Positions 1-33,647 of a stretch of 64,000 bases of DNA are shown here, piece after piece (the first letter of the stretch is position 1; every line of letters starts with the position of its first letter). Source of the DNA: an uncultured Holophagales bacterium (GTDB lineage: Bacteria; Acidobacteriota; Thermoanaerobaculia; Multivoradales; UBA5704); NCBI GenBank assembly GCA_963842525.1, contig CAWJGT010000009.1:960001-1024000 (forward strand). Direction: 5' to 3'. The position numbers were made by a program, and so were the translations under genes. The notes beneath the pieces were generated by a model. That model was given only the letters and a program-made list of their open reading frames with translations, ran no database searches and was not told where the DNA came from.

Positions 1-3000
1 TGGCGCCCAGGGTGATGTTCCCCTTGAGCATCCCCTTCTCGAACGGCACCGTGCCGTGGACGGTGAAGGCGCCGTCGTCGTAGTCGACGTCGATGTTGGC
101 GGTGAGGCCGTGGAAGCCGATGATGGCGTTGCCGTGGGCCTTGACCACGTAGTCGGTGCCACCTTCGCGGGGCTTCATCGAGGCCTCGACCGAGCCGCCC
201 TTGACCAGCGGGATGTCGGAGGCGAGCTGGAGGTTGCCCATGGCCTCGATGCCGACGGCCGGGTTGTACTTGACCTCCAGCGAGGCCTTCTCGATACCCC
301 GCATGTCGGGCTCGACCGCGCCCTTGGCCTCCCAGAGGTCGCCGTCGATCAGCACCTCGACGGTGGCCGACTTGACGCCCTTGAGCTTGCCGGACTTGAC
401 GCCCAGCTTGCCCTTGCCGCCGAATTTCTCGTCGCGGTACCAGACCTCGAATTCGGCGGGCGAGAAGAGGTCGCTCTCGAGCTCGAGCTTGCCTTTGAGG
501 CCGAAGCCCTTGGAGGTGGAGCCGAGGCCGTGCAGGCTGCCGTGGCCGAGCTTCTCGACGTCGAAGAAGACGTCGCCGAGGACCTCGAAGCCCCGGGTGC
601 CGGCATTGACGGTGAGGCTCGCGTCGGTCACCTTGATCGGGCCGGGGAAGGAGTAGTCGCCGATGTCGAACGTCTTGCTCAGGTAGACGTCGTCGCCTTC
701 GATGACGATGTCGATCTCGACGTTCTTGGAGAACAGGGGGATGCTGGGCCTGAGCTTGCCGCGGGCGATGATCCCCTTTTCAGGATCGAGCTCGGCGTTG
801 TCGATGGTGATAGGGCTCAGCCCCTTGGCCTTGAGCACCTTGCTCACGGCGCGGGTGACGGCGGATTGGGGCACGAAGCCGCCCCAGTCCACGGCGTCGG
901 ACTCCTGGATGGGGAAGCTCAGGGCCACCTGCTCGATGATCTTGTTGTCCTTGAACGCCGTGCCGCTGAGCGAGCCGCCCTTGCTCTTGCTGTAGTCGAC
1001 CTGGTTGATCCGGAAGTTCTTGCCGAATGGGAGGCTCACCTTCTTCGACGTGACCTTCTTGCCCCAGTCGATGAAGCGCACGCCGCCGCCGGTCTCGCTG
1101 GTGTAGATGGCCAGCTTGTCCGGGTCTCCCTCCAGGCCCGCGGCCTCGATCTGCTTCTTGGTCAGGGCGCTCAGGACGTCGATCTGCTCGCCGGCCTGGA
1201 TCTGGGGGAGCGTCCACGTCTCGGGTGTGCCCTTGGGGGCCAGCCCGCCGACCACGCTTTCGACCTTGATGGTGTAGGAGCGGCGGACCGCCTCCGCCGT
1301 GGGGGGCTTCCTGGTCCACACCGGGCCCGTGGCGGCGTCGATGAGCTTCTGGATGCGGGCGTTGCGCTCCACCCGGATCTGCCGGCCGGACTCCTGGTTG
1401 GGGCCGGACTCCAGCAGCCACATGTTGCCGATCTCATGGGGGCCGCCGAGCTGCAGCTCGAGCTGGTGATCGACGTCATGGAACTTCCGCTGGCCGTCCT
1501 TGCCCCAGAACGGCCGCAGGGCGCGCTGGCGGATGGCCTCCTTGTCGCCGATGACGTAGTTCTTGTCTCCCTTGAGCTTGAGGAAATGGATGGGCTGACC
1601 CTGCTGGGTCGCGCGCGGTGACTTCTCCTTGGTCAGCTTGGTCTTCAGCTTCGATTCGAGCCCCGGGCCCTCCTTGGCCACCTTCTCCCAGACGGCCCGC
1701 TGGTCGTCCGGCCGCTTGTCGTCGGTCTTCTGGGGCAGGTCGAAGGGCGTCTTGGTGAACTTCTTCTTGAAGGTGGGGACCTTCATCTCGGGAATGGACG
1801 CCTTCTGGGTGCGGCGGTTGATGGTCCCCTCGGGGCCGATGTACTCGTCGGGGTCGGTCGACTTGTTCTTGCTCTTCCCCTTCGCCCGCTGCACCACCTG
1901 GCGCTGCACGGCGCCGCTCTGCTGCACCACGTGGGTGGCCTCGTGGGCCATCAGGCCGAGGTCGTTCTGCGACTCGCCGCTGGCAAGCCAGATGTCCTGG
2001 CCGTGGGTGAAGGCGCGGGCATTCAGGTCTTCGGCGGATTTCTGGGCGGAGCTGTCGGAGTGCACCCGCACGCCGCTGAGGTCGCTGCCCAGGCGGTCCT
2101 CCAGCACGGAGCGGGTGCCGGTATTCAGAGGCTCGCCGCCGCCTTTTCCCGAGATGGCCTGCTCGGCGGCGTTGGCCATGGACGGAGCCGGGGCCGCCGG
2201 AGCCCCACCGCCACCCCCGGCGCCCGCCGTATCGGCCTGGACCGGCTCCTCGTCCTTGTCGCCGCCAGCTTTCTGAACCGGCTTCTTCTCGTCCTTCGGC
2301 GCCTCTGCCTTCTGAACCGGCTTCGCCTTCTCGTCCTTGCCGTCCTTGGTGTCCTTGGCGTCCTTTTGAACCGCCTTCTCTTCAGGCTTCTTGGCGGGCT
2401 CAGCTTTCTGCACCGGCTTTTCCGGGGGCTTTTTCTCCGGCGCCTCGGCCTTCTGGAGGGCGGCCTTCTCGCGGTCCTTCTCCGGACCCACGGTGCGGGG
2501 CTTCTCGGAGGGCGGGCCCTTCAACATCTCCTCGACGGGGGACGCCGCCGCTTTCTGGACCGGCTTTTCCTCGGGCTTTTTCTCCGCGGCAGCCTGGATG
2601 GCTTCGGTCTCCGGCTCGTCCTCGGCCTTCTGGACCGGTTTCTCCTCGGGCTTTTTCGCCGGCTCGGCTGCGGCCTGGATGGCCTCGGGCTCGGGCTCCT
2701 CCTCGGCCTTCTGAACCGGCTTGTCGTCAGGCTTCTTCTCGGCTGCGGCGGCCTGAACGGCCTCGGCCTCGCCCTCGCCCTCGTCTTCCGCCTTCTGGAC
2801 CGGCTTGTCCTCAGGCTTCTTGGCCGGCTCGGCGGCGGCTGCCTGGACCGGCTCGTCCTCTTCGGCCTTCTGGACAGGCTCTTCGTCCTCGGCCTTCTGG
2901 ACGGGCTTCTCCTCGGGCTTCTTCTCCGGGGCTGCCGCGCTCTGGACCTCGTCCTCGCCTTCGTCCATGGCCCGCTGCACGGCCCAGCGCTGGGCTCCTC

Positions 3001-3289
3001 CCCCCATGCTGCCGGGCGCGATGCTGGAAATGGCTGGCGCGTCGAGGCCGGAGGTGACGCGCTGGGCGACCGACTCGGCCTCCTGCTCGTAGCGGTCGCC
3101 GGGCTGGCCGAGGACCGGCTTGCGCTGCACGCCGGCACCCCCACCGCCAAGGCCGATCATCGGGCCCTCGGCGAAGTGCGGCCCGCGGGCGGCCGCGGAC
3201 TGCCGTGCCGCGGCGGCAGGGGCCGGCCCGGCGCCTTCGCCTCCGGAAGCGCCCGGCTTTCCTTTGGACTTGCCGCGGCTATGGCTCAT
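1..3289 (-). CDS. Large DUF4157 (eCIS core domain) protein with (P/A)VQK acidic repeats, an HNH-like nuclease motif and a beta-rich region; 3' end lies outside the window
   Basis: Missing from the ORF track, presumably because it runs off the edge; translated by hand from ATG 3289, which overlaps the ATPase stop (ATGA). Contains QPGDRYEQEAESVAQRV, about 20 VQK/VQA/IQA units, DLSGVRVHSD..ARAFTHGQDI..LMAHEATHVVQQ (DUF4157, HExxH) and DVDHQLELQLGGPHEIGNMWLLESGPN. Confidence 0.85.
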   Translation of the reverse strand, partial: MSHSRGKSKGKPGASGGEGAGPAPAAAARQSAAARGPHFAEGPMIGLGGGGAGVQRKPVLGQPGDRYEQEAESVAQRVTSGLDAPAISSIAPGSMGGGAQRWAVQRAMDEGEDEVQSAAAPEKKPEEKPVQKAEDEEPVQKAEEDEPVQAAAAEPAKKPEDKPVQKAEDEGEGEAEAVQAAAAEKKPDDKPVQKAEEEPEPEAIQAAAEPAKKPEEKPVQKAEDEPETEAIQAAAEKKPEEKPVQKAAASPVEEMLKGPPSEKPRTVGPEKDREKAALQKAEAPEKKPPEKPVQKAEPAKKPEEKAVQKDAKDTKDGKDEKAKPVQKAEAPKDEKKPVQKAGGDKDEEPVQADTAGAGGGGGAPAAPAPSMANAAEQAISGKGGGEPLNTGTRSVLEDRLGSDLSGVRVHSDSSAQKSAEDLNARAFTHGQDIWLASGESQNDLGLMAHEATHVVQQSGAVQRQVVQRAKGKSKNKSTDPDEYIGPEGTINRRTQKASIPEMKVPTFKKKFTKTPFDLPQKTDDKRPDDQRAVWEKVAKEGPGLESKLKTKLTKEKSPRATQQGQPIHFLKLKGDKNYVIGDKEAIRQRALRPFWGKDGQRKFHDVDHQLELQLGGPHEIGNMWLLESGPNQESGRQIRVERNARIQKLIDAATGPVWTRKPPTAEAVRRSYTIKVESVVGGLAPKGTPETWTLPQIQAGEQIDVLSALTKKQIEAAGLEGDPDKLAIYTSETGGGVRFIDWGKKVTSKKVSLPFGKNFRINQVDYSKSKGGSLSGTAFKDNKIIEQVALSFPIQESDAVDWGGFVPQSAVTRAVSKVLKAKGLSPITIDNAELDPEKGIIARGKLRPSIPLFSKNVEIDIVIEGDDVYLSKTFDIGDYSFPGPIKVTDASLTVNAGTRGFEVLGDVFFDVEKLGHGSLHGLGSTSKGFGLKGKLELESDLFSPAEFEVWYRDEKFGGKGKLGVKSGKLKGVKSATVEVLIDGDLWEAKGAVEPDMRGIEKASLEVKYNPAVGIEAMGNLQLASDIPLVKGGSVEASMKPREGGTDYVVKAHGNAIIGFHGLTANIDVDYDDGAFTVHGTVPFEKGMLKGNITLGA
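2240..2990 (-). repeat. Coding low-complexity repeat (KKPEEKPVQKAE-type units) in the DUF4157 protein
   Basis: Recurrent ggccttctggaccggctt-like units on the + strand, translating to PVQKAE/VQAAA on the minus strand. Confidence 0.85.
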
Positions 3290-5410
3290 GACAGGGCGTC
3301 CAGGAAGGCCTCCATGCCACCGCGCCGGTCCATCCGCGGGCGATCGGTGAGCGGGCAGGCGGCGCCCGCCTTGCGGTATTCGGAGCGCACCGCCTGCTCC
3401 ACGTGGCGGCCGTCGACCGCTACGCCCTCGTCGAGCGCCAGCAGTGCGGCGTGCAGCGCGGCATTGCGGATCTGGCCGCCGGTCAGGGCGCAGCGCAGGG
3501 CCACGTCCTCCAGGGTGCCGGGGTCGCACGAGCGGTCCTGGGGCAGGTGGATCTGCCAGATCTGCCAGCGCTCCTCGGCTTCCGGCGGCAGGAACTCGAC
3601 CACCGCGTCCATGCGGCGCTGGAAGGAGCGGTCGATGCGCTCGCCGGCATTGGTGGTGATGACGACGATGCCCTGGAAGGTCTCCAGGCGCTGCAGCAGG
3701 TAGTTGGTCTCCAGGTTGGCGTAGCGGTCGTTGGCGCTGCGTACGTCCGTACGGTTGCCGAGCAGGGCGTCGCCCTCGTCGAGGAGCAGCACCACGTCGA
3801 GCTCCTCGGCCCGGGCGAGGACGCGGTGGAGGTTCTTCTCGGTCTCGCCGACGTACTTGTCCACCACGGCCGCGAGGTCGACCCGGTAGAGGTCGCGCTC
3901 CAATTCGGTCGCCAGGATGCGGGCGGCCAGGGTCTTGCCGGTGCCGCTGGGGCCGGTGAAGAGGGCGCGGACGCCACGGTGGGGACCGTTGCCGAAAGCG
4001 GGCCCCAGGCCGTCGGCCAGCGCCTCGCGGTGGCGGCAGCGCCGGCCGAGGTCGTGCAGGCGCGAAAGAGTGGGGCCGGAGGTCACCAGCGTGTCCCAGG
4101 AGCTGCCGGTCTCCAGGCGGCTGGCCAGGGTGTCCAGCTCCTGGCGGTTGAGCGTGCGGCACGCCTCGCGCACATCGGCCGGCCGTACCTCGCCGCGGCC
4201 GTCCAGGGCCGCCTGGGCGCGGGCGATGCCGGCGGCTCGCCGGATGTGCCCTTCGGGAAGATGAAAGCCGGCGGCGATCTCGTCCAAGCCTTCCACCGGA
4301 TGCCCGGCCAGCGACTCCTCCCAGCAGCGCCGGCGCTCGTCGCGGCGCGGCGCCGGCAAAATGAAAGTGACCGCGCGCTCCAGGGCCGGCCCGGAGAGGC
4401 CGCCTTCGAAGCCGAGGGCCACACCCACGGAGCCGGTATAGCCGGGCAGCTCCGGCACCGCGGCGGTCTGACCGGGCGGCAGGTCGAAGGTGAAGACCGG
4501 CAGCGACCGGGTAGCGACGCAGAGCGGACCGAGCAGGCGCCGGGCCGCCTCGGGAATCTTGCCTTCCTGGGCCTCCACCTCCAGGACACCGCGCCCGAGC
4601 GCGGCGGCAACGGCCCCGAGCACGCGCACACGGTCGCTGCCGCGCAGGCCGCGCGCCACGGCGGCGCCTGCCTCTCCCGAGGCGAGCAGGCCGGGGAGAT
4701 GGCGCAGGCGCGCCAGCAGGGGAGGCGGCAGGACCAGGCCGTCCACGCCGGGGAAGCTCGCCGCGGGGTGCAGCCGGCAGCCGGCCGGCATTTCGGGTGT
4801 CACGTCGCCGCGCACCGCGTCCCACACCGGCGGCGGCACGCGCAGCACCCATTCGGAGCGCGGCGCGCGCTCGTCCAGAGGCTGGAGCAGGCCGGCCTGG
4901 AGGAGCGGCCGGCAGAGCGACCAGGGGTCGGACTCGCGGCCGGGCCGGGGGCCGCCGAGCATGAGCCGGCCCACCAGCTCGACGCACGGCCGCCGTTCGG
5001 CGAGCGGCGCCTGGAGCTCGGCGAAGAGGGCGCCGAAGCGCGGGTCTTCCTCCACCAGGCCTGCGGTCAGGAGCGCCAGCCGGCCGGCGAAGCCTGCACC
5101 AGCGGCCTCGGCCAGCGCGGCGAGAGGCAGGTGGATAGTCCGCGGCCTTCTCCCACGCCAGAACCTCGGCCTCCCACCAGCCGAGGGCGCCGTCCCAGCC
5201 CAGGCCCTCGGGGAGGAGCGGGCGCATCTCCTCGTAATAGCCACCCAGGAAGGGATAGCGGCGCAGCACGCCCTCCAGCCCCGCGGGGCTCGCGCCCGCC
5301 GCGCGCAGGGAATGGAAGAGCCGGTAGAGGGCGGCATACAGGCAGAGCCGGAAATGGGAGGCCGCGGTCCGTGGCAGGTCGGCGAAGGCGGAGGATTCGG
5401 TGGCGCTCAC
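3286..5410 (-). CDS. eCIS AAA+ ATPase (Afp15/Pvc15-like); frameshift near 5135
   Basis: Walker A GPSGTGKT, VDKYVGETEKNL, Walker B LLLDEGDALLG, ANDRYANLETNYLLQRLE. The plausible N-terminus (GTG 5410 after GGAG; MSATESSAFADLPRTAASHFRL) is in another frame and joins at about HLPLAAL. Confidence 0.88.
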
Positions 5411-5420
5411 GGGCGGGCTC

Positions 5421-7610
5421 CTAGTGGAAGTGGAACTGGACGACACGGCCGAACGCCGGGAGCCACCCCGGATCGCGGTCGAGCCCGGAGACACGGACCG
5501 GCATGGAGATGCTCGCGAGGTCCAGGACCACGTCCACGTGCGTGGTGGTGACATGGACGCGGCCGGGCCGCAGCAGCAGGAGCGGCGGCAGCTCCTCCGG
5601 CCGCGCAGGGTCGAGCCCCAGGCCCTGGGCCAGGCGCAGGCGGAGATAGGGGAGAGCGAGGGCCGTCCAGCGAGCGAGCCCGCCGTGCACGAGCCCGTGC
5701 TGCTGCGACTCGACCCCGTGCGGCTGCCGCTCACCCTTGTTTCGCAGCAAATCGACCTCGCCGCGATGCAAATCAGCCTCGATTCGCATCGCCGCGAGCC
5801 CGCTTTGATGCGAACCAGGCTCGTGCGGCTGCCACTCGACCCCGTGTGGCAGCGGCGCGACCCCGAGCGGCCCGCGCACGACCCCGCGCGGCAGCGGCGC
5901 GCCCTCGTGTGGCAGCGGCACGACCGTGTGCGGCAGCGGCACGAGCGTGTGCAGCAGCGGCAGCACCTCCATTTGCATCACAGCGGCCTCGTGCAGCACG
6001 GGCCAGGAGGCCGGCGGGCGCAGCTCATGGGTACCCGTATAGCCACGGCCGGGAGGCTCGTCGGGCTCCCGGCCGGCAAGCACCGCCAGCACGCGCCAGA
6101 CAGGGTCCGCCGCGAGATGGCCTGCCTCACCGAGGAGGCCGCGGGCGATCGCCTCCAGGACGCCCCAGGCCCCGACCCGGCTCGCGAGACGCCAGTCCTC
6201 CTCGAAGCAGTCGGGGAGGTCGAGCGACGTCATGAGGTTGATCAGGTAGAAGATACCGGCGACCTCGGTGGCGACGCCGTCCTCGAAGAGGAGGGATGGG
6301 GGTTCCTCGAACGCCTCGATCTCGTTGTCTACGGCAGGCTCATCCGTGCTGGCCTGCACCTGCTCTGCTGCCGAGAGGGGCTCGGGCATGGGCGCCGCCC
6401 TACCGACCTCCCCATCCGTTGCATCCCCCACTGTAGAGACGCCCCGTGGGGCGTCTCCGAAGCGGCGAGATCCTTCCGAAGGCCGCTGCGGATGCGCGGT
6501 CGCCTCGATGGCGTCCGGATCGGTTCGTCTATCCCCGGCGCCCGATCGGTCCTGTGGTTCATCGGGACGGCCTTGCCGCCGCGGAGACGCCCCACGGGGC
6601 GTCTCTACAGTGGGTGGTGGCGCCCCCTCTCCCGGGGGATGGGAGTGCGGATGGGAGAGGGGGTCGGGGGGTGAGGGCTCCGCGCTGCGCACGCGGCCTG
6701 GTGGTGACCGCCGGGGCCCCCCAACCTTATTTATATAGGGCGCCGGCCACTCCAGCGGCGCCCCCCCCTCCCACCACTCCCGCAGCTCCGTGGCAAAGAC
6801 GGCGCTTCGTGCCCTTGCCGGCTCCTCGAAGAGGGCCAGGGAGACGGCGAGGAGGACCCTCTGTGCCGGGGCGAGCCGGGCGGCGTCCGGGATCTCGCGG
6901 AGACGCTTCTGCCACGCTGGTTGGGGAGAGGTGGCAGAGAACGTCTGTGGCTTGGCGGATGCCACGATGGGATCCGGGGCCGTTTTACCCGCCCGACCCC
7001 CGGCGGGCGGGACGCCCGCGGTCCCAGGGGAGAGATCCGGAGCTCCGTAGGTCTGGGCGACGGTTTCGAGGATCGATAGGGCTTCGGCCTCGGAGAGAGG
7101 CTTGCAGACCTCGACGGCGCGTCCCTGCCTCGCAAGCTGATGGAGGAGGGCGGGCACGTGCGTGGGCTCGGCGGCGAGGAGCCTTGGGAGGTCCCTGGCA
7201 CCTCGGCGGCGCAGGACCTGGCTCCACCACCAGCAGCCGACGGCATTGCCGCGGGCGAGGTCGAGGGCCAGGCAGGCGAGCATCTCGGCCTCGTCGGCGA
7301 AGAGGACGGCCTCGGCGTCCGGCGGCACCGGGCCGTGGGCTGGACGGGCGGCGCGCCGGCAGAAGGTGTCGAGGGCGGTGCGGGCCGCCCGCTCCCAGGT
7401 GGGATCGGGCAGGGCCGGCCCGTTGCTCGGGAGCTTCCCGGGCAGCGGGTCGGCCATGCGGCGGACGATGAGCATGGCGGACGGCGGCAGCTCGGCGGGG
7501 TGCAGATCCGCGCTCCCCAGCCAGGCGCCCGCGGCGAGGCGGACCGCCGGCGTGTCGCCGGCGGCCGATCGCACCCGGAGCGTCCCTACCTCGGCCGTGC
7601 CTGCCACCAT
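5421..7610 (-). CDS. eCIS tape-measure-like protein with in-frame repeat insertions
   Basis: ATG 7610 lies just after the upstream stop. The C-terminus RPGRVHVTTTHVDVVLDL..VRVSGLDRDPGWLPAFGRVVQFHF resembles the CIS tape-measure family C-terminus. Adjacent to the ATPase. Confidence 0.65.
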   Translation of the reverse strand: MVAGTAEVGTLRVRSAAGDTPAVRLAAGAWLGSADLHPAELPPSAMLIVRRMADPLPGKLPSNGPALPDPTWERAARTALDTFCRRAARPAHGPVPPDAEAVLFADEAEMLACLALDLARGNAVGCWWWSQVLRRRGARDLPRLLAAEPTHVPALLHQLARQGRAVEVCKPLSEAEALSILETVAQTYGAPDLSPGTAGVPPAGGRAGKTAPDPIVASAKPQTFSATSPQPAWQKRLREIPDAARLAPAQRVLLAVSLALFEEPARARSAVFATELREWWEGGAPLEWPAPYINKVGGPRRSPPGRVRSAEPSPPDPLSHPHSHPPGEGAPPPTVETPRGASPRRQGRPDEPQDRSGAGDRRTDPDAIEATAHPQRPSEGSRRFGDAPRGVSTVGDATDGEVGRAAPMPEPLSAAEQVQASTDEPAVDNEIEAFEEPPSLLFEDGVATEVAGIFYLINLMTSLDLPDCFEEDWRLASRVGAWGVLEAIARGLLGEAGHLAADPVWRVLAVLAGREPDEPPGRGYTGTHELRPPASWPVLHEAAVMQMEVLPLLHTLVPLPHTVVPLPHEGAPLPRGVVRGPLGVAPLPHGVEWQPHEPGSHQSGLAAMRIEADLHRGEVDLLRNKGERQPHGVESQQHGLVHGGLARWTALALPYLRLRLAQGLGLDPARPEELPPLLLLRPGRVHVTTTHVDVVLDLASISMPVRVSGLDRDPGWLPAFGRVVQFHFH
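5690..6000. repeat. Degenerate 21-bp-period repeat tract, in-frame in the tape-measure-like gene
   Basis: gcagcggc recurs every 21 nt around 5890-5960, giving heptads VPLPHT/VVPLPHE/GAPLPRG/VAPLPHG. Confidence 0.7.
6427..6614. repeat. GTAG-type REP doublet (REPIN-like): perfect 33-bp inverted repeat
   Basis: CCCACTGTAGAGACGCCCCGTGGGGCGTCTCCG at 6427-6459 and its exact reverse complement at 6582-6614; each arm is itself a hairpin preceded by GTAG. Confidence 0.85.
6623..6682. repeat. About 58-bp palindromic element, family A, copy 1 (in-frame)
   Basis: CCCCTCTCCC..GGGAGTGCGGATGGGAGAGGGG..GGGGGTGAGGG; nearly identical to 38685-38742. Confidence 0.85.
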
Positions 7611-7614
7611 GCGC

Positions 7615-9915: not shown

Positions 9916-9945
9916 CGTTCTTCTCCTCTTTTCGGGTGCCCCATG

Positions 9946-17722: not shown

Positions 17723-17724
17723 CC

Positions 17725-20389: not shown

Positions 20390-20392
20390 CGC

Positions 20393-21979: not shown

Positions 21980-21994
21980 CACGTTTCCTCGTCC

Positions 21995-22711: not shown

Positions 22712-22713
22712 GC

Positions 22714-23799: not shown

Positions 23800-23811
23800 G
23801 CTCTCGTTCTC

Positions 23812-23998
23812 CTAATGCGCCCGCAGCCGGGTCGGTGCGCGCGGCTTGATGGCGCAACAGGTTGCGCAGCTCTTCGAGGCTGAGGGACGGCGGTGAGGCG
23901 GCGCGGCGGCCTCCCGTCCGGCCGGCCCGGCGGCGCCGCGGCGCCTCGCCGGCCGGCGGCGCGGCCACGACATCCAGCTCGTTGATGATCACGCCCAT
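23812..23998 (-). CDS. Small eCIS-associated hypothetical protein (about 60 aa, frameshifted)
   Basis: GGA-preceded ATG MGVIINELDVVAAPP, then LEELRNLLRHQAAR, and RLRAH-stop in an adjacent frame just before the next RBS. Confidence 0.5.
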
Positions 23999-24016
23999 GC
24001 AGTCAGGTCCTTCCGC

Positions 24017-24741
24017 TTAGCGCCTGCCGCCGCCGGGGCTCAGCAGGCCCGGGAGGACGGCGCGGGTTGTCCACGTTGTTGGCTTCGGCGAGGGGGCGCC
24101 AGTTCTCGGCTTGGCCCTGGCGGCCGGCCACGCCCTGCACGGTCTCGCCCTGCCGCACCGGCTCCTGCGGCGTGCGGCCCGGAGCGCCCTGGCCACCCGC
24201 CCCGCCGGCGCCTGCACCGCTTCCGGGGGCGCCTGGCAGGTCGCGGATCTCTCGCTGAATGTCCTGGCTGAGCAGGCTGACCGAGACCTTGGAGCGCAGC
24301 GGCCGGCCTTCTTCGGAGAAGAGCTTCCAGGCTCTCGTTGAGCGACTCCATGATCCCGTCGAACAGGAAGCTCCCCCAGGCGAAGCGCACCCCCGGCGGC
24401 ACCGGGTTCTTCTGCTTGGGGTCCTTCTTCGGCGTGATGAAGTAGGAGACCTCGCGGGTGAGCAGGCGCACGTCGTTGGGTGCCCCCGGCGCGCGGTCGT
24501 CCGGATCGACCGTGACGTCGAACCAGAGGTCGAGCGTCAGCTTGGTGGTGCTCTTGGAGACGAACTGCACGGCCGCCTTCTTGCCCTGGTCGCCGCCGCC
24601 GAGCTGGTTGCTGTAGGCCACCTTCAGGCTGTCGGGGTTGAACTGCACGCGCACCTTCTTCTCCAGCTCGACCACCTGCTGGTTGTTGTCCCACTTGATC
24701 TCCTGCAGCTCGGCCTTGGCGATGGTCTGCGGCTCGGGCAC
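24017..24741 (-). CDS. CIS tube-initiator protein with LysM-like C-terminus (Afp7-like); frameshifts near 24330 and 24060
   Basis: VRVQFNPDSL, LTLDLWFD, PPGVRFAWGSFLFDGIMESL, then FSEEGRPLRSKV and RQGETVQGVA..NWRPLAEANNVDNPR in another frame. Confidence 0.8.
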
Positions 24742-24765
24742 GGTCGATCTCTCCCCCTTTAGGGC

Positions 24766-25233
24766 CTAGGCCCCGGGCGGCACAAGCTGCAGCCGCTCGT
24801 AGGCGATGTTCATCTCTTCGATGGCGATCTGGCCGTCCTTGGCGTTCAGCGCCGGCATCCTCAATTTGGTCGGCAGGCAGCCGGTCAGGGTGAAGGTCAG
24901 CGCCCGCTCGCGCACCCGGTCCTGCGGCAGCAGCACCACCTGGCCGAAGGCGCGGATGCCGCGCGTGTCGCGGCGCAGCACGCGGTCGAACCACGCCCAG
25001 AGGTCGAGCGTGCGGGTGACGCCGCGCTTCAGAACGAGCTGGCCATAGGCCGTGGGGCCCAGCAGGTGGATGGGCCGCGAGTTGTTGCCCCCTTCGCGGA
25101 TGGTCTGCGGCGTCATGGTCACTTCCAGGCCGTCGCACTCGGAGAACTCGGCGTTGCAGAAGATCTGGCCGCCGGGGACCTGGAGCTCCACCAGGAAGTT
25201 GAAGGTGGAGAAGGGGCGCTCGATCTCGGCCAC
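24766..25233 (-). CDS. Tail tube protein, T4 gp19-like (Afp5-like)
   Basis: PFSTFNFLVE, FSECDGL, IREGGNN, LVLKRG, PALNA..IAIEEMNIAYE. Confidence 0.93.
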   Translation of the reverse strand: MAEIERPFSTFNFLVELQVPGGQIFCNAEFSECDGLEVTMTPQTIREGGNNSRPIHLLGPTAYGQLVLKRGVTRTLDLWAWFDRVLRRDTRGIRAFGQVVLLPQDRVRERALTFTLTGCLPTKLRMPALNAKDGQIAIEEMNIAYERLQLVPPGA

Positions 25234-25235
25234 GC

Positions 25236-28071
25236 TCAGGCCTCCTCCAGGAACGGCGGCTCCTGGCCTGCCTGGACCAGGCGCACGGTGAGGAAGGCCA
25301 GCGGGCGCGACGGCGCCACCCGCAGCTCGACGACGAAGCGGCCCAACTCGGCGGTGCCCGGCGGGTTGACCGAGGAGTCGATCACCACGCGGTAGGCCTC
25401 GGCGGGCGTGGCGCCGGTGAAGGCGCCGCGGATGTAGAGCCCGGCCAGCACCTGGTCGAACCGCCGCCAGACGCGGCGCCGGAAGGTGTCGTCGTGCGGC
25501 TCGAAGACGTAGGTGGTCCCCTCGCGCAGCGCCAGCCGGCGGAGCAACGACAGCAACCGGCGGACGTTGACCGGCCGCACCTCCGCGTCATTCGCTGAGC
25601 GTGTCCGCCGAAAGGGCTAGAAAACCGCGCGGGTCGGAGCGCAGCAGGTTGACGCGGACGTTCAGGAGGCGCGCCCAGGAACGGGTGCTGAACGGCGGGT
25701 CCAGGGCCACCACGTCGCGCAGCGGTACGTTGGCCGGCGCGATCCAGGCGCCGCGCGATCGCGCCAGGGCTGCATAGGTGCCGCCGACCGCACCTTCCGG
25801 AGGAGCCCAGAGGGCCTCGCCGCCTGCCGCCACCCCCACCCCCCCAACACCCCGCCGGGCGATCCACGGGTGATAGAGGGCGCCATAGCCGAGCACCGGC
25901 CGCTCGCCGTCGGTGAAGAGCGGCACGCCGCCGGGAGCGAGCAGCGGCACGCCGGCCACAGCCTCGGGCGCGGCGCCGGGGGTCAGATGCGTCAGGTGGT
26001 CCAGCGCCTCCTCCTCGCGGAACGAGCGGGGGAGCGCGAGGAGCGCCAGCAGGTCGCCGCGCGCGCAGCAGAAGCGCAGCAGCGCCCGTTGCACCGCGGC
26101 CAGGACGGTGGCGTCACCGTCGCCCTCGCTGGAGGTCGTCATCCGCCAGGCCGTGGGCGGGGGCGCCGAGCGTCGCAGGGTGATCGACCATGGGCCGCTT
26201 TCGCCATCCCGCACGGCGCGCACGCGGTAGAGGAGCGTCCGTGCCGGGGGGCCGGAGAACCGGTGGGATGTGCCGGAGGCGATGCGGGTCGGGCGGGCGT
26301 CGGCGAAGGACGGATCGGCCGACTCTTCGACGACATAAGCGGTCGCACCAGGAACGCCGGCCCAGAGGAGGACGTCGCCCTCGGGCGGCGAGCCGTACGG
26401 CTCCAGGTGCGGCTCCGGCGTTGCCAGCGGCTCCTCGTCGCAACGGACGAAGGGCTCGGCGGGCAGCACGGCGCGGACGGTGTTGGACCACGGCCCGGCC
26501 TCGCTGCCGCGGTCGGCCCGCACGCGGAACCAGCGCGCCGCGGGACAGGCGACGGGCGGGGGCACATCGAGGAGAAGGCCGGCGATCCCATCCCAGCTCC
26601 GCACGGCGCGGCCAAGGCCGGCATCGTCCCCCTCCTCGACCCGGAAGGTCACGTCCGCCGGTCCCGTCCAGGTCCAGGTCAGGTCCACGCCTTCATCGGA
26701 TTCCGGCGCGGCAACGAGCACCGGCGCCGGCAGCTCGGGCGTGATCTCGGGCGTCTCGCGCTCCCAGCCGGCATGGACGGCATCGGGCACTGCCAGCAGG
26801 CTGACCTCTTCCAGGGGAAGGAGCGCGTGGAGCCCGCCGAGGTCTTCGCCGACCACATACAGCCGGTGGTTGGCCTCGGCGAGGAGCGAGCCGGCGCCGA
26901 GCTGGGCGAGCCGCCGGTCCAGGAAGAGAAGGGCGCCGAAATTCGCCAGGCCGTCGCGCTCCAGTGCCGTGTCCGGCGAAGCGTCCGTGGACGGGCCGCG
27001 GGCCGCGTCCGCCGCAGGGGCCGACGGCATGGCGACGGGCAGATAGAGAGGCGCCGGGTCGTCCGGGCCGGCGAAGGGGAAGCGGGGCGTTGCGGCATCC
27101 CTGGCCAGCGGCCCGCTGGCGGGCACGCCATGGGGCGGCGCCGCCAGGAGCCCGGCGTCGGTAGGCAGGCCACCCCAGAAGCGCGGGTGGGCGGCGGCGA
27201 AGCCGAGCCGGCTGAGCCGGGCGCGCAGCCCGTCACCTTCCCAGGCCAGCAGCTCGAAGGTGAGCCGGCGCACCGACGGCACCCCCGCGAGCGGCGGGCT
27301 GGCCAGGCGGATCGCCTCCCACAGCGCCAGACCGTCGGTCTCGGAGATCGGGATCAGCCGCCGCAGGCCGGGCTCAAGGGCCGACGGCGGCGAGCCCTGT
27401 AGCTCCGGCAGCGCCCAGAACCCCTGGCTGGAGGTCAGCAGCAGGCCGCGCCGCCGGGGCTCCGGCTGCGTCACGGCCTCGACCGGCAGGAAGAGGACCG
27501 GGCCCTGATCGTTGATGGGGTCGAAGTCGAGCTCCAGGAGGTCGCCCGGAGCGGCGCCACCGGGCGGCAGGGAGAGGTACAGGCGGTAGTCGTTGGGAGC
27601 GGCGGAGAACGGCTCGCCCTGGGAGGGATCGAGCGGCAGCCCCTCGCGGTCGAGCACGGCGCCGGCGCGCAGGCGGTCGGCCCAGCTCCCCTCGGCGCGG
27701 GCGCGTGTTTCGGCCGGCTCCCAGGAGTCGGCCCGCACCAGGCCGGGCACCGGAAAGCGCTGGGTGCTCGCTCCGGCGCCGGCTACCCGCACCACCCAGC
27801 AGCGCCGGCCGCCGTTGCGGAAGAAGTCCTCGACCGCGGCGCCCAGGTGAGCGGTCTGCAGCCGTCCGGTTTCGGCGTCCCAGGCGAGCGGCGCGTCGCC
27901 GCCGAACAGGTCGCGAAAGCGCGCCGCGTCCTCCACCGCCACCGGCATCCCCACGGGGCCGGCGGCGGCGAAGCCCACGAACGCCGCCACGTCCATGCGC
28001 GGCAGGGCACGCTCCGCGGCCGGTGGCTCGGCCCGGAACCGGACTCCTGGCAGCTCCGCTTCGAGGATCAC
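25236..28071 (-). CDS. Second, enlarged tail sheath protein with two FnIII-like insertions; frameshift near 25585
   Basis: PRMDVAAFVGFAAAGP, VEDFFRNGGRRCWVVRV, YGALYHPW, RGAWIAPAN; the C-terminal ORF 25236-25580 has VNVRRLL, YVFEPHD, ELRVAPSRPLAFL. Confidence 0.85.
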
Positions 28072-28084
28072 CGCGGCCTCCGCC

Positions 28085-28544
28085 TCACGTGGTCTCCAGC
28101 ACGATCCGCTCGGAGGCCAGGACGAGCTCCTCGATGGCCACGTCCGTGCCCTTGCCGTTGAGCGCCGGGCCGGTGTACTTCATGGGCCGCGCGTTCTTGA
28201 GCTTCCCACTTGACCGCGGTCTCCGACCGGTCCTGGGTGAGCAGCTCGATCGTCACGTCCTTGAGGGCGTCCTGGGCGCCGTTGCGCACCTCCTCCAGCC
28301 ACTGGTAGAGGTTGGTCGCGCCGATGACGCCGCGCTTGAGCGTGATGTCCGGGGTCTTGTACGTGCCGGTGATCTTCATCGGCGCGTTGTCCTTGAAGTT
28401 GCCGGCGCGGTATTCGGCCACGGTGATCTCCATGCCGAGGCCGCTGATCTCCTGGAAGCCGGCCTTGACGTCCGTGGCGTCAAGGCCTTCCCAGCTCACC
28501 AGGAAGTTGAACTGGCTGTAGGGGCGGTCACGTTCGATGGCCAT
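28085..28544 (-). CDS. Tail tube protein, T4 gp19-like (Afp1-like); frameshift near 28205
   Basis: PYSQFNFLV, GFQEISGL, EYRAGN, ITLKRG; continues LKNARPMKYTGPALNGKGTDVAIEELVLASE-stop in another frame. Confidence 0.9.
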
Positions 28545-28561
28545 CGTCTAGCCTCCTCGGG

Positions 28562-30490
<1,929 letters not shown>

Positions 30491-30512
30491 TGCGGTCTTC
30501 CTCCTGATCGGG

Positions 30513-31421
30513 TTACGGGGGCGAGCCCGCTGCTTCGACGAGCAGCTCGGGCCGGCCGGAGGTGCGCAGCACCAGCTCGCGGCCGTAGGCCAGCTCGGCC
30601 TCCAGCTCCGGGATGGTGGGGCCGGCATCCGGCCACAGCCGTGCCGGCTCCTGGTGCCGGATGGCGCGCAGGTCGGGCACGCCCCAGGCGACGGGTTGAG
30701 TGGGAAGCCCGGGTGACCAGCGCACCCGGGCGGTGAGGTGCCAGCGCTGCCCCGCCAGCGGCGGGAACGTGCCGTTGGGCGGCGACGTGGCGATCGTGCC
30801 GGTGACGGTAGGCCAGGGGAGGAGCACGGTCACGCTGCCGCGGCGGTCGGCCAGGCCATACCAGCGGTCGCCCCCCTCCAGCTCCAGCTCCAGCAGCGCA
30901 TGCGCCGCCGGCGCCGGTGCACCATCCGGCCCGCTGCTGTCCGCGTCGGCGAGCTGGGCCCGCACCACGGCCAAGCCGGGGCCTGCCGGCCGGTTGGGGG
31001 ACGAGAACAGATAGCAGCGCGCCGATGCCGCGGACAGCGGGCTCGCATCGAGCCCGGGATTCCACGGGCCGCGGTAGGGGAGCGGCAGGTCCACCGCGAA
31101 CGCCACGGGCAGGAAGCGGCGCCGCGCGTCCTCGACGCTCACCAGGAAGCGCACCGAGAGCGGCTCCGGCGGGCTCGCCAGCAGCTCGGTATCATCGTCA
31201 GAGCGCTCCAGGGCGCGCAGGCCCGGCAGGCCGTGAAAGGCCCACAGCCCGCCGGCGGTGCGCACGGCCGTGCGCTCGGGCCCCACGCCGTCGGCGCGCC
31301 GCGCCCGCACCAGCAGGCTGTCGCGCACCTGCTCGTCGAGAGCGGGGTCCCAGAAGCGGATGCCCAGGAGCGTCCGTACGGTGAGCTCCTCCAGGACACG
31401 GACGTCGACCAGAGGCTCCAT
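30513..31421 (-). CDS. Uncharacterised eCIS-associated protein (beta-rich)
   Basis: Intact ORF between DUF4255 and sheath, tightly coupled to both. Confidence 0.7.
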   Translation of the reverse strand: MEPLVDVRVLEELTVRTLLGIRFWDPALDEQVRDSLLVRARRADGVGPERTAVRTAGGLWAFHGLPGLRALERSDDDTELLASPPEPLSVRFLVSVEDARRRFLPVAFAVDLPLPYRGPWNPGLDASPLSAASARCYLFSSPNRPAGPGLAVVRAQLADADSSGPDGAPAPAAHALLELELEGGDRWYGLADRRGSVTVLLPWPTVTGTIATSPPNGTFPPLAGQRWHLTARVRWSPGLPTQPVAWGVPDLRAIRHQEPARLWPDAGPTIPELEAELAYGRELVLRTSGRPELLVEAAGSPP

Positions 31422-31422
31422 C

Positions 31423-32049
31423 TCAGGCCCTCTCAACAACGCCGTGGCGGAAGCGCCGTTCCTGGACCAGCGGCCGGTCGGCCGGCCCTGCGCCGGCCTC
31501 GCCCGTTGCCGTCTCGGTCTCCACCTGCTCCAGCCACACCGCCCGCGCCTGGTAGGGGACCGACAGGTGGTATTCGTTCTGCGCCAGGTTCTCCCACAGC
31601 CGCAGGAGGTCCTCGGTGGACAGCTCGGTGGGGGAGAGCTCCACCGTCTCCTCGGGCCGGAAGACGTCCGCGGTCACCCGGTTGAGCAGGCCGGCGGGCA
31701 GCACCGGGTGGTCCTCCAGGACGCGCATGGCCCAGCCGGCCACGCGGTGCTGGAGAGAGGCCTCGCGGCCCCAGAACGACAGCAGGAAGTGCAGATCAAG
31801 GGGGAGCTGGTGAGGCGCCTGCACCCCGCCCGGCCCCAGGCGGCCGGCCGGCAGGCGGTGGGTGCCATTGATGTAGACCCGGTAGAGGAAGAGCGACACC
31901 CCGGCGTTCAGCGGCTCTTCCTTGAGCTGCCGGGCGGTGAGCACCCGGAACTGCAGCTCGTGATCGTCGAGCTCCGCCGCAGCGGATTCGGAGCGCAGCA
32001 GCCCCATCACCGCCTCGCAGACCGCCGACACCGCCCGGAAGTCGGCCAT
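31423..32049 (-). CDS. DUF4255 / Pvc16-Afp16-like cap (tail terminator) protein
   Basis: VSAVCEAVMGLL, GVSLFLYRV, LPLDLHFLLSFW, MRVLEDHPVL, LSVPYQARAV. Confidence 0.88.
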   Translation of the reverse strand: MADFRAVSAVCEAVMGLLRSESAAAELDDHELQFRVLTARQLKEEPLNAGVSLFLYRVYINGTHRLPAGRLGPGGVQAPHQLPLDLHFLLSFWGREASLQHRVAGWAMRVLEDHPVLPAGLLNRVTADVFRPEETVELSPTELSTEDLLRLWENLAQNEYHLSVPYQARAVWLEQVETETATGEAGAGPADRPLVQERRFRHGVVERA

Positions 32050-32331
32050 CAGGCGTCCTCCCGCGCGGTGAGGAGCGACCGGACATCGTCCAGCCGTTCG
32101 GGGTCGATCCGGTAGTGGAGCCGCGAGCTGCCGTTGCGCCGCTCGAGCAGAAGCCCGCGGGCGGTGAGCTCCCGAGATCGCCTCGCGGACCTTCTGCATC
32201 TCGTCCGCGATGTAGCGCTCGAGCAGCCACCACTGGACGATCCCCTCCAGGGTGTCCTGGGCCGCGGGATTGTCGGCGAGGTAGGCGAGCACCTCGTAGG
32301 CGAGCGGTGAGCGGAGCTTCGATCGGTCCAT
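32049..32331 (-). CDS. Small winged-helix-like protein, first gene of the eCIS operon; frameshift near 32170
   Basis: EVLAYLADNPAAQDTLEGIVQWWLL..VREAI, continuing ELTARGLLLERR..HYRIDP in another frame; its stop overlaps the DUF4255 start (TGATG). Confidence 0.7.
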
Positions 32332-32347
32332 CGGCACGGCGCTGGAA

Positions 32348-32363
32348 AGCAACCGCGATGCCA
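32348..32363 (-). promoter_or_regulatory. Sigma54 -24/-12 promoter of the eCIS operon
   Basis: Minus strand reads TGGCATCGCGGTTGCT (GG-N10-GC, near consensus TGGCACG-N4-TTGC), 17 nt before the first ATG and next to a sigma54 activator gene. Confidence 0.8.
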
Positions 32364-32368
32364 TGGCC

Positions 32369-32390
32369 TAAGTCATTGAAAATAAAGAAC
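32369..32390 (-). promoter_or_regulatory. Putative IHF binding site
   Basis: Minus strand TTTCAATGACTTA (one mismatch to WATCAA-N4-TTR) in a locally AT-rich patch just upstream of the -24 box. Confidence 0.55.
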
Positions 32391-32460
32391 AATATCTCGC
32401 AGGCTAGGATCTTTTCGTCCGCGTGGCCGGGGCGTGCTTCGGGGATTCCGCCAGTGCGGG

Positions 32461-32519
32461 CAGGGTGGACGAATTTGTCCTAGCCCTGAGGGGAAATGTC
32501 CCTGAGGAAAATTCCCCTG
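32461..32519. promoter_or_regulatory. Candidate upstream activator sequences
   Basis: Imperfect palindrome GGACGAATTTGTCC flanked by CAGGG/CCCTG, followed by related GGGGAAATGTCC and GGAAAATTCCCC, 100-150 bp upstream of the promoter. Confidence 0.4.
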
Positions 32520-32618
32520 CTCCTCGTTTACTTCGAATGTAGCGAACTTGCTCTGAGTGTCGCCTAAGCTTGTAGAGGATCTCTCGCCGGCGAGAGCCGT
32601 CGAATGCGGAGCGCAAGG

Positions 32619-33647
32619 ATGGGGACCAGCACGCACAGCTCGCAACAGGAGATGGTGCAGCGGCTCAAGGAAACTCTGGGCTTGAAACGCCTGATCGGCG
32701 AAAGCCCTGCCTTCCTCGAACAGATCCAGAAGCTGCCGGCCGTGGCGCGCTGCGACGCCGGTGTGCTGATCTCCGGCGAGACCGGCACCGGCAAGGAGCT
32801 CATCGCCCGCGCCATCCACTACCTGAGCCCGCGCGCGAGCGGCCCCTTCATTCCCGTCAACTGCGGTGCGATCCCGGTCGACCTGCTGGAGAACGAGCTG
32901 TTCGGGCACGAGCGTTCCGCCTTCACCGGCGCCCAGACCGCCCAGCCTGGCCTCATCGAGGAGGCGGACGGCGGCACCCTGTTCCTGGACGAGGTGGACT
33001 CGCTGCCGTTGCTCGCCCAGGTCAAGCTGCTGCGCTTCCTGCAGGAGAAGGAGTTCCGGCGTCTCGGCTCGACCCGGGTGCAGAAGAGCGATGCGCGGGT
33101 GATCGCGGCCACCAACGCCGACGTCGAAGCCGCCGTGGCCCAGGGGAAGATCCGCCGTGACCTCTACTACCGGCTGAACGTCATCCCCCTCGTCTTGCCG
33201 CCGCTGCGCGAGCGCAGGGAGGACATCTCCCTCCTTGCCCACCATTTCCTGCGCCGGTACGCCGAGGAGCTCGGGCAACCGTGCTGCGGCTTGACCGCCG
33301 AAGCGACGCAGATGCTCCAGGGGTACGACTGGCCGGGCAACGTCCGGGAGCTCGAGCACGTGATCGAGCGCGCGGTCGTGCTCTCCGGAGACCGGGAACA
33401 GATCGAGGCCGAGGCGATCGACCTCCCCCGGTCCGGGCCCGAGCCCGCGCTCCCGCGGTCCTTCCAGGAAGCCAAGGCCCTGGCGATTGCCCGCTTCGAG
33501 AGGAGCTACCTCGAAGAGCTGCTCGCCCTCTGCGGAGGCAACATCAGCCGCGCAGCCCGCACCGCCCAGAAGCACCGCCGCGCCTTCTGGGAGCTGATCC
33601 GCAAGCATTCGATCGACGCCCGGCGGTTCCGGTCGCCCGAGGTGTAG
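32619..33647 (+). CDS. Sigma54-dependent transcriptional activator (AAA+ and Fis-type HTH) without an N-terminal sensor domain
   Basis: GETGTGKE, ENELFGHERSAFTGA, GGTLFLDE, DLYYRLNV, WPGNVRELE, GNISRAAR; start uncertain (32604, 32619 or 32652). Confidence 0.93.
   Translation: MGTSTHSSQQEMVQRLKETLGLKRLIGESPAFLEQIQKLPAVARCDAGVLISGETGTGKELIARAIHYLSPRASGPFIPVNCGAIPVDLLENELFGHERSAFTGAQTAQPGLIEEADGGTLFLDEVDSLPLLAQVKLLRFLQEKEFRRLGSTRVQKSDARVIAATNADVEAAVAQGKIRRDLYYRLNVIPLVLPPLRERREDISLLAHHFLRRYAEELGQPCCGLTAEATQMLQGYDWPGNVRELEHVIERAVVLSGDREQIEAEAIDLPRSGPEPALPRSFQEAKALAIARFERSYLEELLALCGGNISRAARTAQKHRRAFWELIRKHSIDARRFRSPEV

Follow-up and report, generated by a model that had tools for sequence, protein, structure and literature searches.

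We describe a contractile injection system (CIS) in a 64,000-nucleotide stretch of DNA from an uncultured Holophagales bacterium of the Acidobacteriota (GenBank assembly GCA_963842525.1, contig CAWJGT010000009.1, positions 960,001 to 1,024,000), hereafter called the window. The locus is a genuine CIS and represents a conserved, horizontally spread subtype of lineage II of the extracellular contractile injection systems (eCIS). Its most interesting feature is a pair of envelope proteins encoded inside the structural block, a membrane-tailed protein of 529 amino acids (aa) and an exported protein of 766 aa with a predicted outer-membrane barrel.

Because the G+C content of the window is 71%, lists of its open reading frames (ORFs) are full of false frames. 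Genes were called by third-position GC (GC3) and phase and then checked against Pfam and NCBIfam; at least one Pfam family is matched by 17 of the 22 ORFs scanned. Starting with the activator and then following the operon from its promoter to its last gene, the features are the following.

32604 to 33647, plus strand: sigma-54 enhancer-binding activator, 347 aa (Pfam Sigma54_activat 4.7e-67, AAA_lid_14, HTH_8)
32489 to 32518, no strand: inverted repeat (arms of 13 nt, spacer of 4 nt), 85% complementary, about 125-155 bp upstream of the -12 element
32349 to 32363, minus strand: sigma-54 -24/-12 promoter, TGGCAT-N5-TTGC, one mismatch to consensus
31423 to 32331, minus strand: cap or tail terminator (Cis16, DUF4255; Pfam Pvc16_N 3.4e-28)
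30513 to 31439, minus strand: conserved 308-aa protein between cap and sheath, no Pfam or NCBIfam match
28562 to 30493, minus strand: sheath (Cis2), 643 aa (Pfam Phage_sheath_1, Phage_sheath_1C)
28085 to 28544, minus strand: inner tube of gp19 type (Pfam Phage_T4_gp19), apparent +1 frameshift near 28199
25236 to 28071, minus strand: long second sheath-like protein, 827 + 114 aa, the two frames meeting near 25590 (Sheath_1C only in the 114-aa piece)
24766 to 25233, minus strand: second gp19-type tube (Pfam Phage_T4_gp19 1e-28)
24003 to 24741, minus strand: CIS_tube protein of tube initiator type (Pfam CIS_tube 1.5e-14, first 137 residues)
22714 to 23799, minus strand: baseplate hub of gpD type (Pfam Phage_GPD 2.7e-09)
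21995 to 22711, minus strand: spike of OB-fold gpV type with a beta-helical end (Pfam Phage_base_V 4.7e-27)
20393 to 21982, minus strand: membrane-tailed protein, 529 aa, hydrophobic segments at 478-515
19988 to 20389, minus strand: gp25-type baseplate wedge (Pfam GPW_gp25 4.6e-22)
17725 to 19973, minus strand: Baseplate J (Cis11; Pfam Baseplate_J), two apparent +1 frameshifts (19466, 19429)
14834 to 17962, minus strand: baseplate protein Cis12 with long extensions, at most 1042 aa (NCBIfam CIS12_fam 7.2e-40, Pfam Tail_P2_I)
12516 to 14837, minus strand: fibre, 773 aa, with a CIS13-type N-terminus (CIS13_fam, residues 35-178) and a ComEA-type helix-hairpin-helix (HhH) C-terminus (HHH_3, 716-771)
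10908 to 12482, minus strand: second CIS13-like protein, 524 aa (NCBIfam CIS13_fam, residues 18-91)
9946 to 10890, minus strand: Ig-like protein, 314 aa, no signal peptide seen (weak Pfam FixG_C 2.8e-4)
7615 to 9915, minus strand: exported protein, 766 aa, with a signal peptide, a CBM9-like domain, cysteine-rich beta domains and a C-terminal 8-stranded outer-membrane barrel, as predicted
5421 to 7610, minus strand: putative tape measure or length determinant, about 730-775 aa, no family match, directly upstream of the ATPase
3286 to 5400, minus strand: AAA+ ATPase (Cis15 type; Pfam AAA 4.1e-23), apparent frameshift near 5150, start uncertain
1 to 3289, minus strand, ending 865 bases left of the window: DUF4157 (eCIS_core) protein, 1384 aa (Pfam eCIS_core 2.5e-23)

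Every structural CIS gene lies on the minus strand, in a single operon that starts from the sigma-54 promoter (32363-32349) and measures ~33.2 kb to the stop codon of its last gene. The original prediction, made from the letters of the window alone, had described a 32-kb operon; its co-orientation stands, and its length grows with the last gene leaving the window. By Pfam, five core families, i.e., sheath, inner tube, hub/spike, gp25 and Baseplate_J, form one cluster, and the DUF4255 cap, the AAA ATPase and the DUF4157 protein are all present. It is strongly supported that the operon encodes a complete particle, with cap, two sheaths, tubes, hub, spike, baseplate, fibres, putative tape measure and ATPase.

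The sequence to the left of the window was retrieved and annotated over 20 kb, and the right flank over 12 kb. Within these distances there is no capsid, portal, terminase or type VI secretion system (T6SS) membrane-complex family, and no TssJ, TssL, TssM, TssA or ClpV family among the ORFs of the locus and its flanks. The predicted lack of capsid, terminase and T6SS membrane complex holds over this entire range, including the newly retrieved left side, where no capsid or terminase gene is found. The window contains no tRNA genes.

That a sensor-less sigma-54 activator and the -24/-12 promoter drive this one minus-strand operon is strongly supported at the level of sequence. The activator gene is divergent from the operon, and its product joins an AAA+ domain to a Fis-type helix-turn-helix (HTH_8), without an N-terminal sensor domain. 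Window-wide, 53 matches to the -24/-12 element with at most two mismatches are found against 52.6 expected, i.e., no excess over chance, so the argument for the promoter rests on position and conservation. The same element lies ahead of the first CIS gene in a genome of the same genus (G005) and in two further genera (G026 and G010), and in G026 it is the sole match within 13.5 kb. Activator homologues adjoin the first CIS gene in the same three genomes, with 86% (G005), 62% (G026) and 69% (G010) identity. These are the genomes in which promoter and activator could be judged; at the other five related loci the DNA ends 0.6-2.5 kb upstream of the first gene (in G003 inside the sheath gene), or the sole activator-like gene lies ~28 kb off. 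The genome encodes rpoN, and the inverted repeat at 32489-32518 is a candidate activator-binding site. The operon's own promoter and activator had been predicted, and both are borne out.

Sequence searches with the sheath against the PDB place the locus among the CIS lineages. The best matches are 9ezm (1.4e-104), 8bky (9.3e-104) and 8bl4 (1.3e-101); far behind follow Afp3 (8.5e-43), Pvc2 (4.3e-40), the Anabaena thylakoid CIS (tCIS, 2.9e-40) and 7adz (4.6e-37), which we take to be AlgoCIS. By these sheath E-values the locus appears nearest to the haloarchaeal (IIa) and Streptomyces (IId) systems, not to Afp/PVC, where the lineage names are used as quoted in later papers. The earlier label "Afp/PVC/MAC-type" is accordingly imprecise, as ~1e-104 is reached with the haloarchaeal and Streptomyces sheaths, against only ~1e-43 to 1e-37 with those of Afp, PVC, the Anabaena tCIS and 7adz. 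The best match, 9ezm, is the membrane-bound clade IIa system of the haloarchaeon Halogeometricum borinquense (PMC11566945), and 8bky and 8bl4 belong to the cytoplasmic type IId system of S. coelicolor (PMC10066040, PMC12237407).

The accessory genes recur in distant bacteria. A search of one genome per species with an alignment of the exported protein retrieves four loci, in metagenome-assembled genomes (MAGs) labelled Paracoccaceae, Longimicrobium, Woeseiaceae and Pyrinomonadaceae. In 4/4 of them the homologue of the exported protein has the second-fibre homologue on one side and that of the putative tape measure on the other, and the block J, Cis12, fibre, fibre, (Ig protein), exported protein, putative tape measure, ATPase, DUF4157 protein recurs. 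First fibre and ATPase are each present in three of the four, the short L018 contig ending before both. The second CIS13-like protein is found in all four, as well as in G049 and in the same-genus genome G003, and Ig-like homologues in three. In G049, from another family of the same order, the whole operon is found in the same order, with a TIG-domain protein and a 750-aa protein (barrel 32% identical) in the places of the Ig-like and the exported protein. Recurrence of the accessory block, with its gene order kept, in MAGs from four further lineages shows that this is a conserved subtype, and it answers the question of co-occurrence raised by the original prediction, with G049 adding diverged positional analogues. 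Homologues of the 308-aa protein occupy the same position in G005, G026, G049 and G002.

Sheath relatives are present in 39 of the 61 related genomes searched, mostly as other CIS types. The genome itself holds four more clusters with sheath, tube, spike and gp25 genes (C3:1826000-1839000, C3:1860000-1872000, C30:72000-94000 and C19:335000-342500), one of which carries two DUF4157 genes. Relatives of the 529-aa protein and the block from fibre to tape measure are absent from all four.

The accessory set is a conserved, experimentally untouched variant of a known machine type, and several of its parts are already catalogued. The catalogues count 49 occurrences of Sigma54_activat within eCIS operons, where it is classed as a "shell" domain (4 phyla), 6 of HHH_3, some of them in 1331-aa Algoriphagus proteins, and just 2 of OMP_b-brl, which is not enriched; HHH_3 and HHH_5 occur at the C-termini of catalogued eCIS fibres, multi-fibre loci are enriched in Myxococcota, and in these catalogues none of the HhH fibres and sigma-54 regulators has been studied experimentally (Geller 2021 PMC8213781; Nachmias 2026 PMC12923769 supplements). 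The eCIS literature searched (supplements by term, the Geller 2021 files in part) describes neither the conserved block nor either of the envelope proteins. The earlier view of an unusual non-core set can be kept insofar as sequence searches against the PDB and the literature consulted gave no characterised system with it; HhH tips and sigma-54 activators, taken singly, are already in the catalogues.

The first envelope protein, of 529 aa, is soluble in its N-terminal part, while ~40 residues of its C-terminal part form a strongly conserved hydrophobic stretch. At least 1818 relatives are found at E <=0.001 among 8000 candidates scored; no relative has a Pfam family, and all named ones are called hypothetical. 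In 30 relatives, chosen from 120 listed and aligned, conservation is among the highest in the last ~45 residues, where many columns are invariant. Thus the membrane-tailed protein of the original prediction is confirmed in its hydrophobic C-terminal tail, which is conserved in a large family. The AlphaFold2 (AF2) model, with a mean predicted local distance difference test (pLDDT) of 79.5, starts with a beta-rich domain, which is followed by a helical domain and, at 481-520, by a long terminal helix. Foldseek with this model returns nothing at E <=0.001, and the protein has no sequence relative among solved PDB chains. A wide structural search was also tried; its best match, at Z 7.0, is tied among generic Ig-like matches, two T6SS cargo/adaptor chains reach Z 6.7-6.8, and no assignment was made.

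The gene for the 529-aa protein lies between spike and gp25, in a locus without a PAAR match: no PAAR family is matched in 30 ORFs of the locus and left flank, among which there may be a diverged cap. Complex prediction of the 529-aa protein with three copies of the beta-helical end of the spike gives a median score of 0.36, with the best control at 0.00; at least 48% of contacts are shared between runs, with a partner pLDDT of 69 or more. The mark applied to such predictions is reached by 116 of 157 solved complexes and by 2 of 215 mismatches, and scores of 0.60 or lower that reach it belong to 18 of those 157 complexes and to both passing mismatches. The prediction gives weak support to an association with the spike. 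If the family is a spike-associated membrane element, a role would be assigned to well over a thousand uncharacterised proteins.

The second envelope protein, of 766 aa, begins with a hydrophobic segment, and its match to Pfam OMP_b-brl (27.1 bits) falls just under the cut-off of 28.7. Its AF2 model (pLDDT 66.7) has 8 strands at 625-764, for which Foldseek finds NspA (TMt 0.76, root-mean-square deviation 3.2), OmpA (0.65) and also OmpX; the N-terminal domain matches CBM9 with TMt 0.57-0.58. A sequence search against the PDB gives no useful match. Signal peptide and modelled 8-stranded barrel agree with the outer-membrane barrel protein predicted earlier. The family is rare, with 12 proteins, including that of the window, among 5.8 billion clusters. 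Around one conserved domain, 11 members compared in an alignment end in two ways, six in a barrel and five in a hydrophobic helix and basic tail, which to us resembles C-terminal sorting signals. In a barrel with an even number of strands both termini face the periplasm, as is established for OmpA and OmpX. From this topology we infer that the body of the 766-aa protein would be periplasmic, and the helix-anchored variants would fit the same side.

Both fibre proteins carry only partial CIS13_fam matches, far below the equivalog cut-off, and a hydrophobic-segment scan finds no transmembrane helix in either. The HhH domain of the 773-aa fibre is well supported, with 41.3 bits against a cut-off of 27 for HHH_3 and a ComEA chain (8dss, 2.9e-05) in the PDB sequence search, and as a domain the predicted DNA-binding-type tip is therefore real. 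The C-terminal half with the HhH aligns in G049 and L017 and not in L019, L020 and G003; as it aligns in only some relatives, the fibre tip is exchangeable. It is from domain content only that we infer a possible interaction of the fibre with DNA, and likewise a possible tethering to the envelope. A separate question posed by the HhH tip is whether a fibre can use extracellular DNA as its binding target.

At the end of the operon, the ATG of the DUF4157 gene overlaps the stop of the ATPase gene. The DUF4157 protein consists of ~360 residues of charged repeats, an HExxH domain, a conserved region of ~240 residues that contains an HNH-like motif, and a beta-rich part of ~650 residues; DUF4157 at the N-terminal side, a long linker and a position at the 3' end are the published norm (Geller 2021, PMC8213781). 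The region 480-720 has 250 representative relatives, with eCIS_core upstream in 29 of the 30 scanned. A D-H...N...N motif lies near residues 605-631; for the HNH there is no Pfam match at E <=1 and no PDB match at E <=10, and Atlas leads for the region score 0.78-0.79 only. A PDB sequence search with the DUF4157 protein likewise yields no useful match. Of the HNH-DUF4157 cargo that had been proposed, eCIS_core (2.5e-23) is secure, and the HNH has support at motif level only.

Three further genes need comment. The CIS12_fam match of Cis12 is partial and below the equivalog cut-off, its true start is probably downstream of 17962, and a sequence search against the PDB gives no useful match. Cis12 also has ~480 extra N-terminal residues, which recall the membrane-touching Cis12 extension of Anabaena, and a Glyco_hydro_42 profile match (9.6e-13) in two stretches. 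The C-terminal ~80 residues of the putative tape measure are 38-56% identical in G049, G003, L017 and L020, and the L019 homologue aligns nearly over its full length, at 32%. The cap gene has to start downstream of the promoter, probably with the ATG at 32331; its first ~100 codons may carry indels or form a small ORF of their own. Compared with G005, this region has an extra G beside GAGCTC, near 32170, and a GC3 phase change at 32075-32135. In G005 (L012:1285-1610) the ~100 codons ahead of the DUF4255 domain look like a small separate winged-helix-like ORF, from which the window (31423-32364) differs by single-base indels.

Single-base shifts appear in five core genes: the tube at ~28199, the second sheath at ~25590, CIS_tube at ~24321 (perhaps also at 24040), baseplate J at 19466 and 19429, and the ATPase at ~5150. 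They were located by GC3 phase changes without stops and by three-frame translations. The Phage_T4_gp19 match of the first tube spans only profile positions 2-102 of 134, with the missing C-terminus in the next frame; in G049 the two pieces of the second sheath are both matched in one frame, 10 bases apart; CIS_tube continues in another frame, and the N-terminal ~90 codons of the ATPase are read in another frame. Between the CIS_tube and hub genes, at 23800-23998, lies a small ORF with coding-like GC3, whose frame continues into the hub gene.

Four of the shift sites (19429, 19466, 24321 and 28199) read GGAAGCTC on the sense strand, i.e., GAGCTC plus one extra base. Genome-wide, a +1 phase change is found at 76 of 284 confidently phased GGAAGCTC sites (26.8%) and at 56 of 405 sites of its reverse complement (13.8%), while 25 random 8-mers give a background with a mean of 3.9% and a maximum of 8.2%. 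The motif-linked +1 shifts are thus 3 to 7 times background on either strand. GAGCTC itself is common, with 8411 copies in the genome. Soil-metagenome contigs from related strains are informative at 19434, 19470 and 25592: one base is omitted at 19434 and 19470 (one contig each, in 3/4 runs, the fourth without cover), and one contig (X3) omits one base at 25592.

As four sites share one motif that is linked on either strand to genome-wide +1 shifts, we consider it likely that the frameshifts are a systematic, strand-blind basecalling or assembly error at the GAGCTC motif. Two points weigh against this. A contig from another run spans 25592 without the deletion, and the contigs of relatives show no more than the existence of intact alleles, so the frameshifts could be real mutations. 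The locus would then be decaying, with real insertions in tube, second sheath, tube initiator, J and ATPase, and the operon a non-functional remnant in this strain. That at least five core genes are broken within 25 kb, next to large unbroken nonribosomal peptide synthetase (NRPS, 2203 aa) and polyketide synthase (PKS, 1609 aa) genes, would fit such decay, as does the uninterrupted form on related metagenome contigs. However, the motif shared by the four sites and its genome-wide tie to +1 shifts, the strong GC3 coding signal on either side of each shift and the lack of premature stops or deletions beyond the shifts make decay unlikely. Programmed frameshifting at GGAAGCTC was rejected, as the reverse complement is enriched too and relatives carry uninterrupted sequence. 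The motif-linked shifts are an annotation warning for this assembly, where they probably break many gene calls genome-wide.

How the particle acts is the central question, as the positioning of a CIS (released, membrane-anchored or free in the cytoplasm) decides its function and cannot yet be predicted from sequence. We rank first a particle assembled in the cytoplasm and most likely released from the producer as a single-shot device, with a probability of about one in two, because the locus has the full set of eCIS hallmarks, including two fibres. Fibres, ATPase, DUF4255 and a 3' DUF4157 protein are the classic ones (Geller 2021, PMC8213781). In such a particle the ComEA-type fibre tip would attach to DNA, or to a different polyanion, on the target or in the matrix. 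The 529-aa protein might replace the missing PAAR cap, sitting on or close to the spike, and carry a hydrophobic hairpin to a membrane. Anchored in the outer membrane through its barrel, the Sec-exported CBM9-like protein would work in the producer's own envelope and could help with release, wall passage or self-protection. The DUF4157 protein could be cargo or a cargo-processing factor, possibly a nuclease, with ATPase and DUF4157 protein serving loading or payload.

Several observations count against this proposal. The characterised systems nearest by sheath work from the membrane or within the cell and are not released as particles (PMC11566945, PMC10066040, PMC12237407), and published CIS work warns that the mode of action is not reliably predictable from sequence. 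No holin, endolysin or spanin is recognised in the locus and flanks. By the calibration of the prediction tool, a spike contact of the kind proposed would, unless a strong prior exists, be wrong in more cases than not, and the tape measure is assigned by position only. For the DUF4157 protein, the HNH assignment lacks Pfam or PDB backing, a single homologue of 30 has an HNH match at the equivalent place, below threshold (19.8 bits against 21.4), and membership in a conserved family of ~1200-aa proteins is as compatible with a fixed component as with a toxin. Finally, an exported envelope protein and a tail-anchored protein within the structural block fit an anchored system at least as well.

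Such an anchored system is the strongest competitor, and we regard it tentatively as a possible explanation, clearly behind release. The particle would dock on the inner membrane through the tail-anchored 529-aa protein and fire outward through the producer's envelope on contact, in a T6SS-like manner; the extended Cis12 and the Cis13 proteins would possibly help docking, and the exported protein, fixed in the outer membrane or, in relatives, by a C-terminal helix in the inner one, would be the periplasmic part of an anchoring or passage complex whose components are unrelated to TssJLM. The nearest sheath relatives, membrane-acting or cytoplasmic, agree with this, and there are precedents in the Cis13 transmembrane helix and Cis12 extension of Anabaena (PMC8894136), CisA in Streptomyces and Hbor_38620 in haloarchaea (PMC11566945). 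Cis12 is extended here too, at 1042 aa, in a family of at least 1818 proteins few parts are as well conserved as the hydrophobic tail, and the exported protein keeps its place within the structural block in five loci, with two alternative membrane anchors in its family. However, the locus has no ClpV-type recycling ATPase and no TssJ/L/M/A family, and the two fibres, putative tape measure, Cis15 ATPase and DUF4157 protein are hallmarks of released eCIS. The periplasmic site of the exported protein's body comes from barrel topology, and no predicted or measured contact ties that protein to the particle.

It can be speculated further, although we find it doubtful, that lineage-II CIS of diderms evolved their own trans-envelope docking apparatus from non-T6SS parts, a convergent "type VI-like" secretion. 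Its parts may be the inner-membrane tail-anchored protein, the periplasmic carbohydrate-binding protein fixed by an outer-membrane barrel (or by an inner-membrane helix in relatives), and the fibres as internal or envelope tethers. If so, the system would fire through the producer's envelope independently of the T6SS membrane complex.

Even less probable is a cytoplasmic cell-death system as in Streptomyces, Roseiflexus and Deinococcota, in which particles fire into the producer's own membrane under stress, with the membrane-tailed protein as trigger or adaptor and the DUF4157 protein as internal effector. The sheath is as close to that of the Streptomyces system (CIS-Sc) as to any solved system, the lineage IId members imaged so far are cytoplasmic, and the CIS-Sc effectors and CisA are membrane proteins (PMC10066040, PMC12237407); a DNA-binding fibre tip would also find its ligand, the nucleoid, inside the cell. 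However, CIS-Sc clusters, as described, lack tail fibres and a typical tape measure, whereas two Cis13 proteins and a candidate tape measure are encoded here. It is not obvious what an exported outer-membrane protein would do in an internal system, and the 529-aa protein has no sequence relative among solved chains. A prophage, or a tailocin with lysis genes, is dismissed, as no capsid, terminase, holin or endolysin family occurs in the locus and flanks.

Around the locus, the left flank encodes 8 proteins, with TPR, glycosyltransferases, a methyltransferase-GT25 protein, NRPS and one without assignment. The TPR, two GT2 (one GT2-TPR) and methyltransferase-GT25 genes are co-oriented and directly follow the last CIS gene (L002:288-3132, L001:13375-16233; window -3712 to -868 and further left), and a GT2 homologue (38% identity) also lies ~6 kb past the DUF4157 gene in the same-genus G003 locus. 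These glycosyltransferase neighbours may link the CIS locus to glycosylation. Among the 10 ORFs of the right flank are PIN, HTH, luciferase-like oxygenase, PKS, DinB, helicase and DprA. The PIN-domain (167 aa) and HTH_3 (98 aa) proteins lie at 34193-35684, in a stretch of 62% GC between the activator and the PKS cluster, and may be a toxin-antitoxin-like pair or mark an island edge. The whole CIS locus is flanked by a modular PKS on the right (36927-41756) and NRPS genes on the left (L001:2780-11798).

Compared with known systems, the H. borinquense CIS shares with this locus the best sheath match of the solved chains, Cis11/12/13-type baseplate parts and a conserved non-T6SS membrane protein. 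However, its anchor candidate has six transmembrane helices and is encoded upstream of the cluster, its archaeal host has no outer membrane, and the available parts of its account mention no outer-membrane barrel protein, sigma-54 control or DUF4157 end gene (PMC11566945). CIS-Sc (PDB 8bky, 8bl4, 9gtp) also has a close sheath, and its function depends on the membrane proteins CisA and Sco4256-4258; it differs in its lack of tail fibres or a typical tape measure (PMC10066040, PMC12237407), the features set against two Cis13 proteins above, and in its Gram-positive host. By description, CisA is bitopic with a sugar-binding-like domain outside, while the 529-aa protein is tail-anchored with its bulk N-terminal.

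The thylakoid-anchored CIS of Anabaena (PDB 7b5h) resembles the locus in its extended Cis12, and there Cis13 and Cis12 serve as anchors (PMC8894136). The N-terminus of the fibre has a weak resemblance to All3314 (E 0.19); the sheath of Anabaena is much more distant (2.9e-40), and the fibres here are without its transmembrane helix. With Afp and PVC of Serratia and Photorhabdus (PDB 6rao, 6j0n) the locus shares sheath, tube, spike, gp25, J, fibre and DUF4255 cap, a length determinant (here putative) beside the AAA ATPase and a payload gene at the 3' end. In contrast, the sheath matches only at 1e-43 to 1e-20, the regulator differs, there is no PAAR match here, the cap gene comes first and not last, and only this locus, not Afp or PVC, has the extra membrane-tailed and exported proteins. 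The canonical T6SS differs by its TssJ/L/M and ClpV families, which are not seen among the locus and flank ORFs. The haloarchaeal, Streptomyces and Anabaena systems all use non-T6SS membrane anchors (PMC11566945, PMC10066040, PMC12237407, PMC8894136). With a block conserved across phyla, sigma-54 control and two envelope proteins, the locus described here provides a defined, testable diderm case of a lineage-II CIS meeting the envelope.

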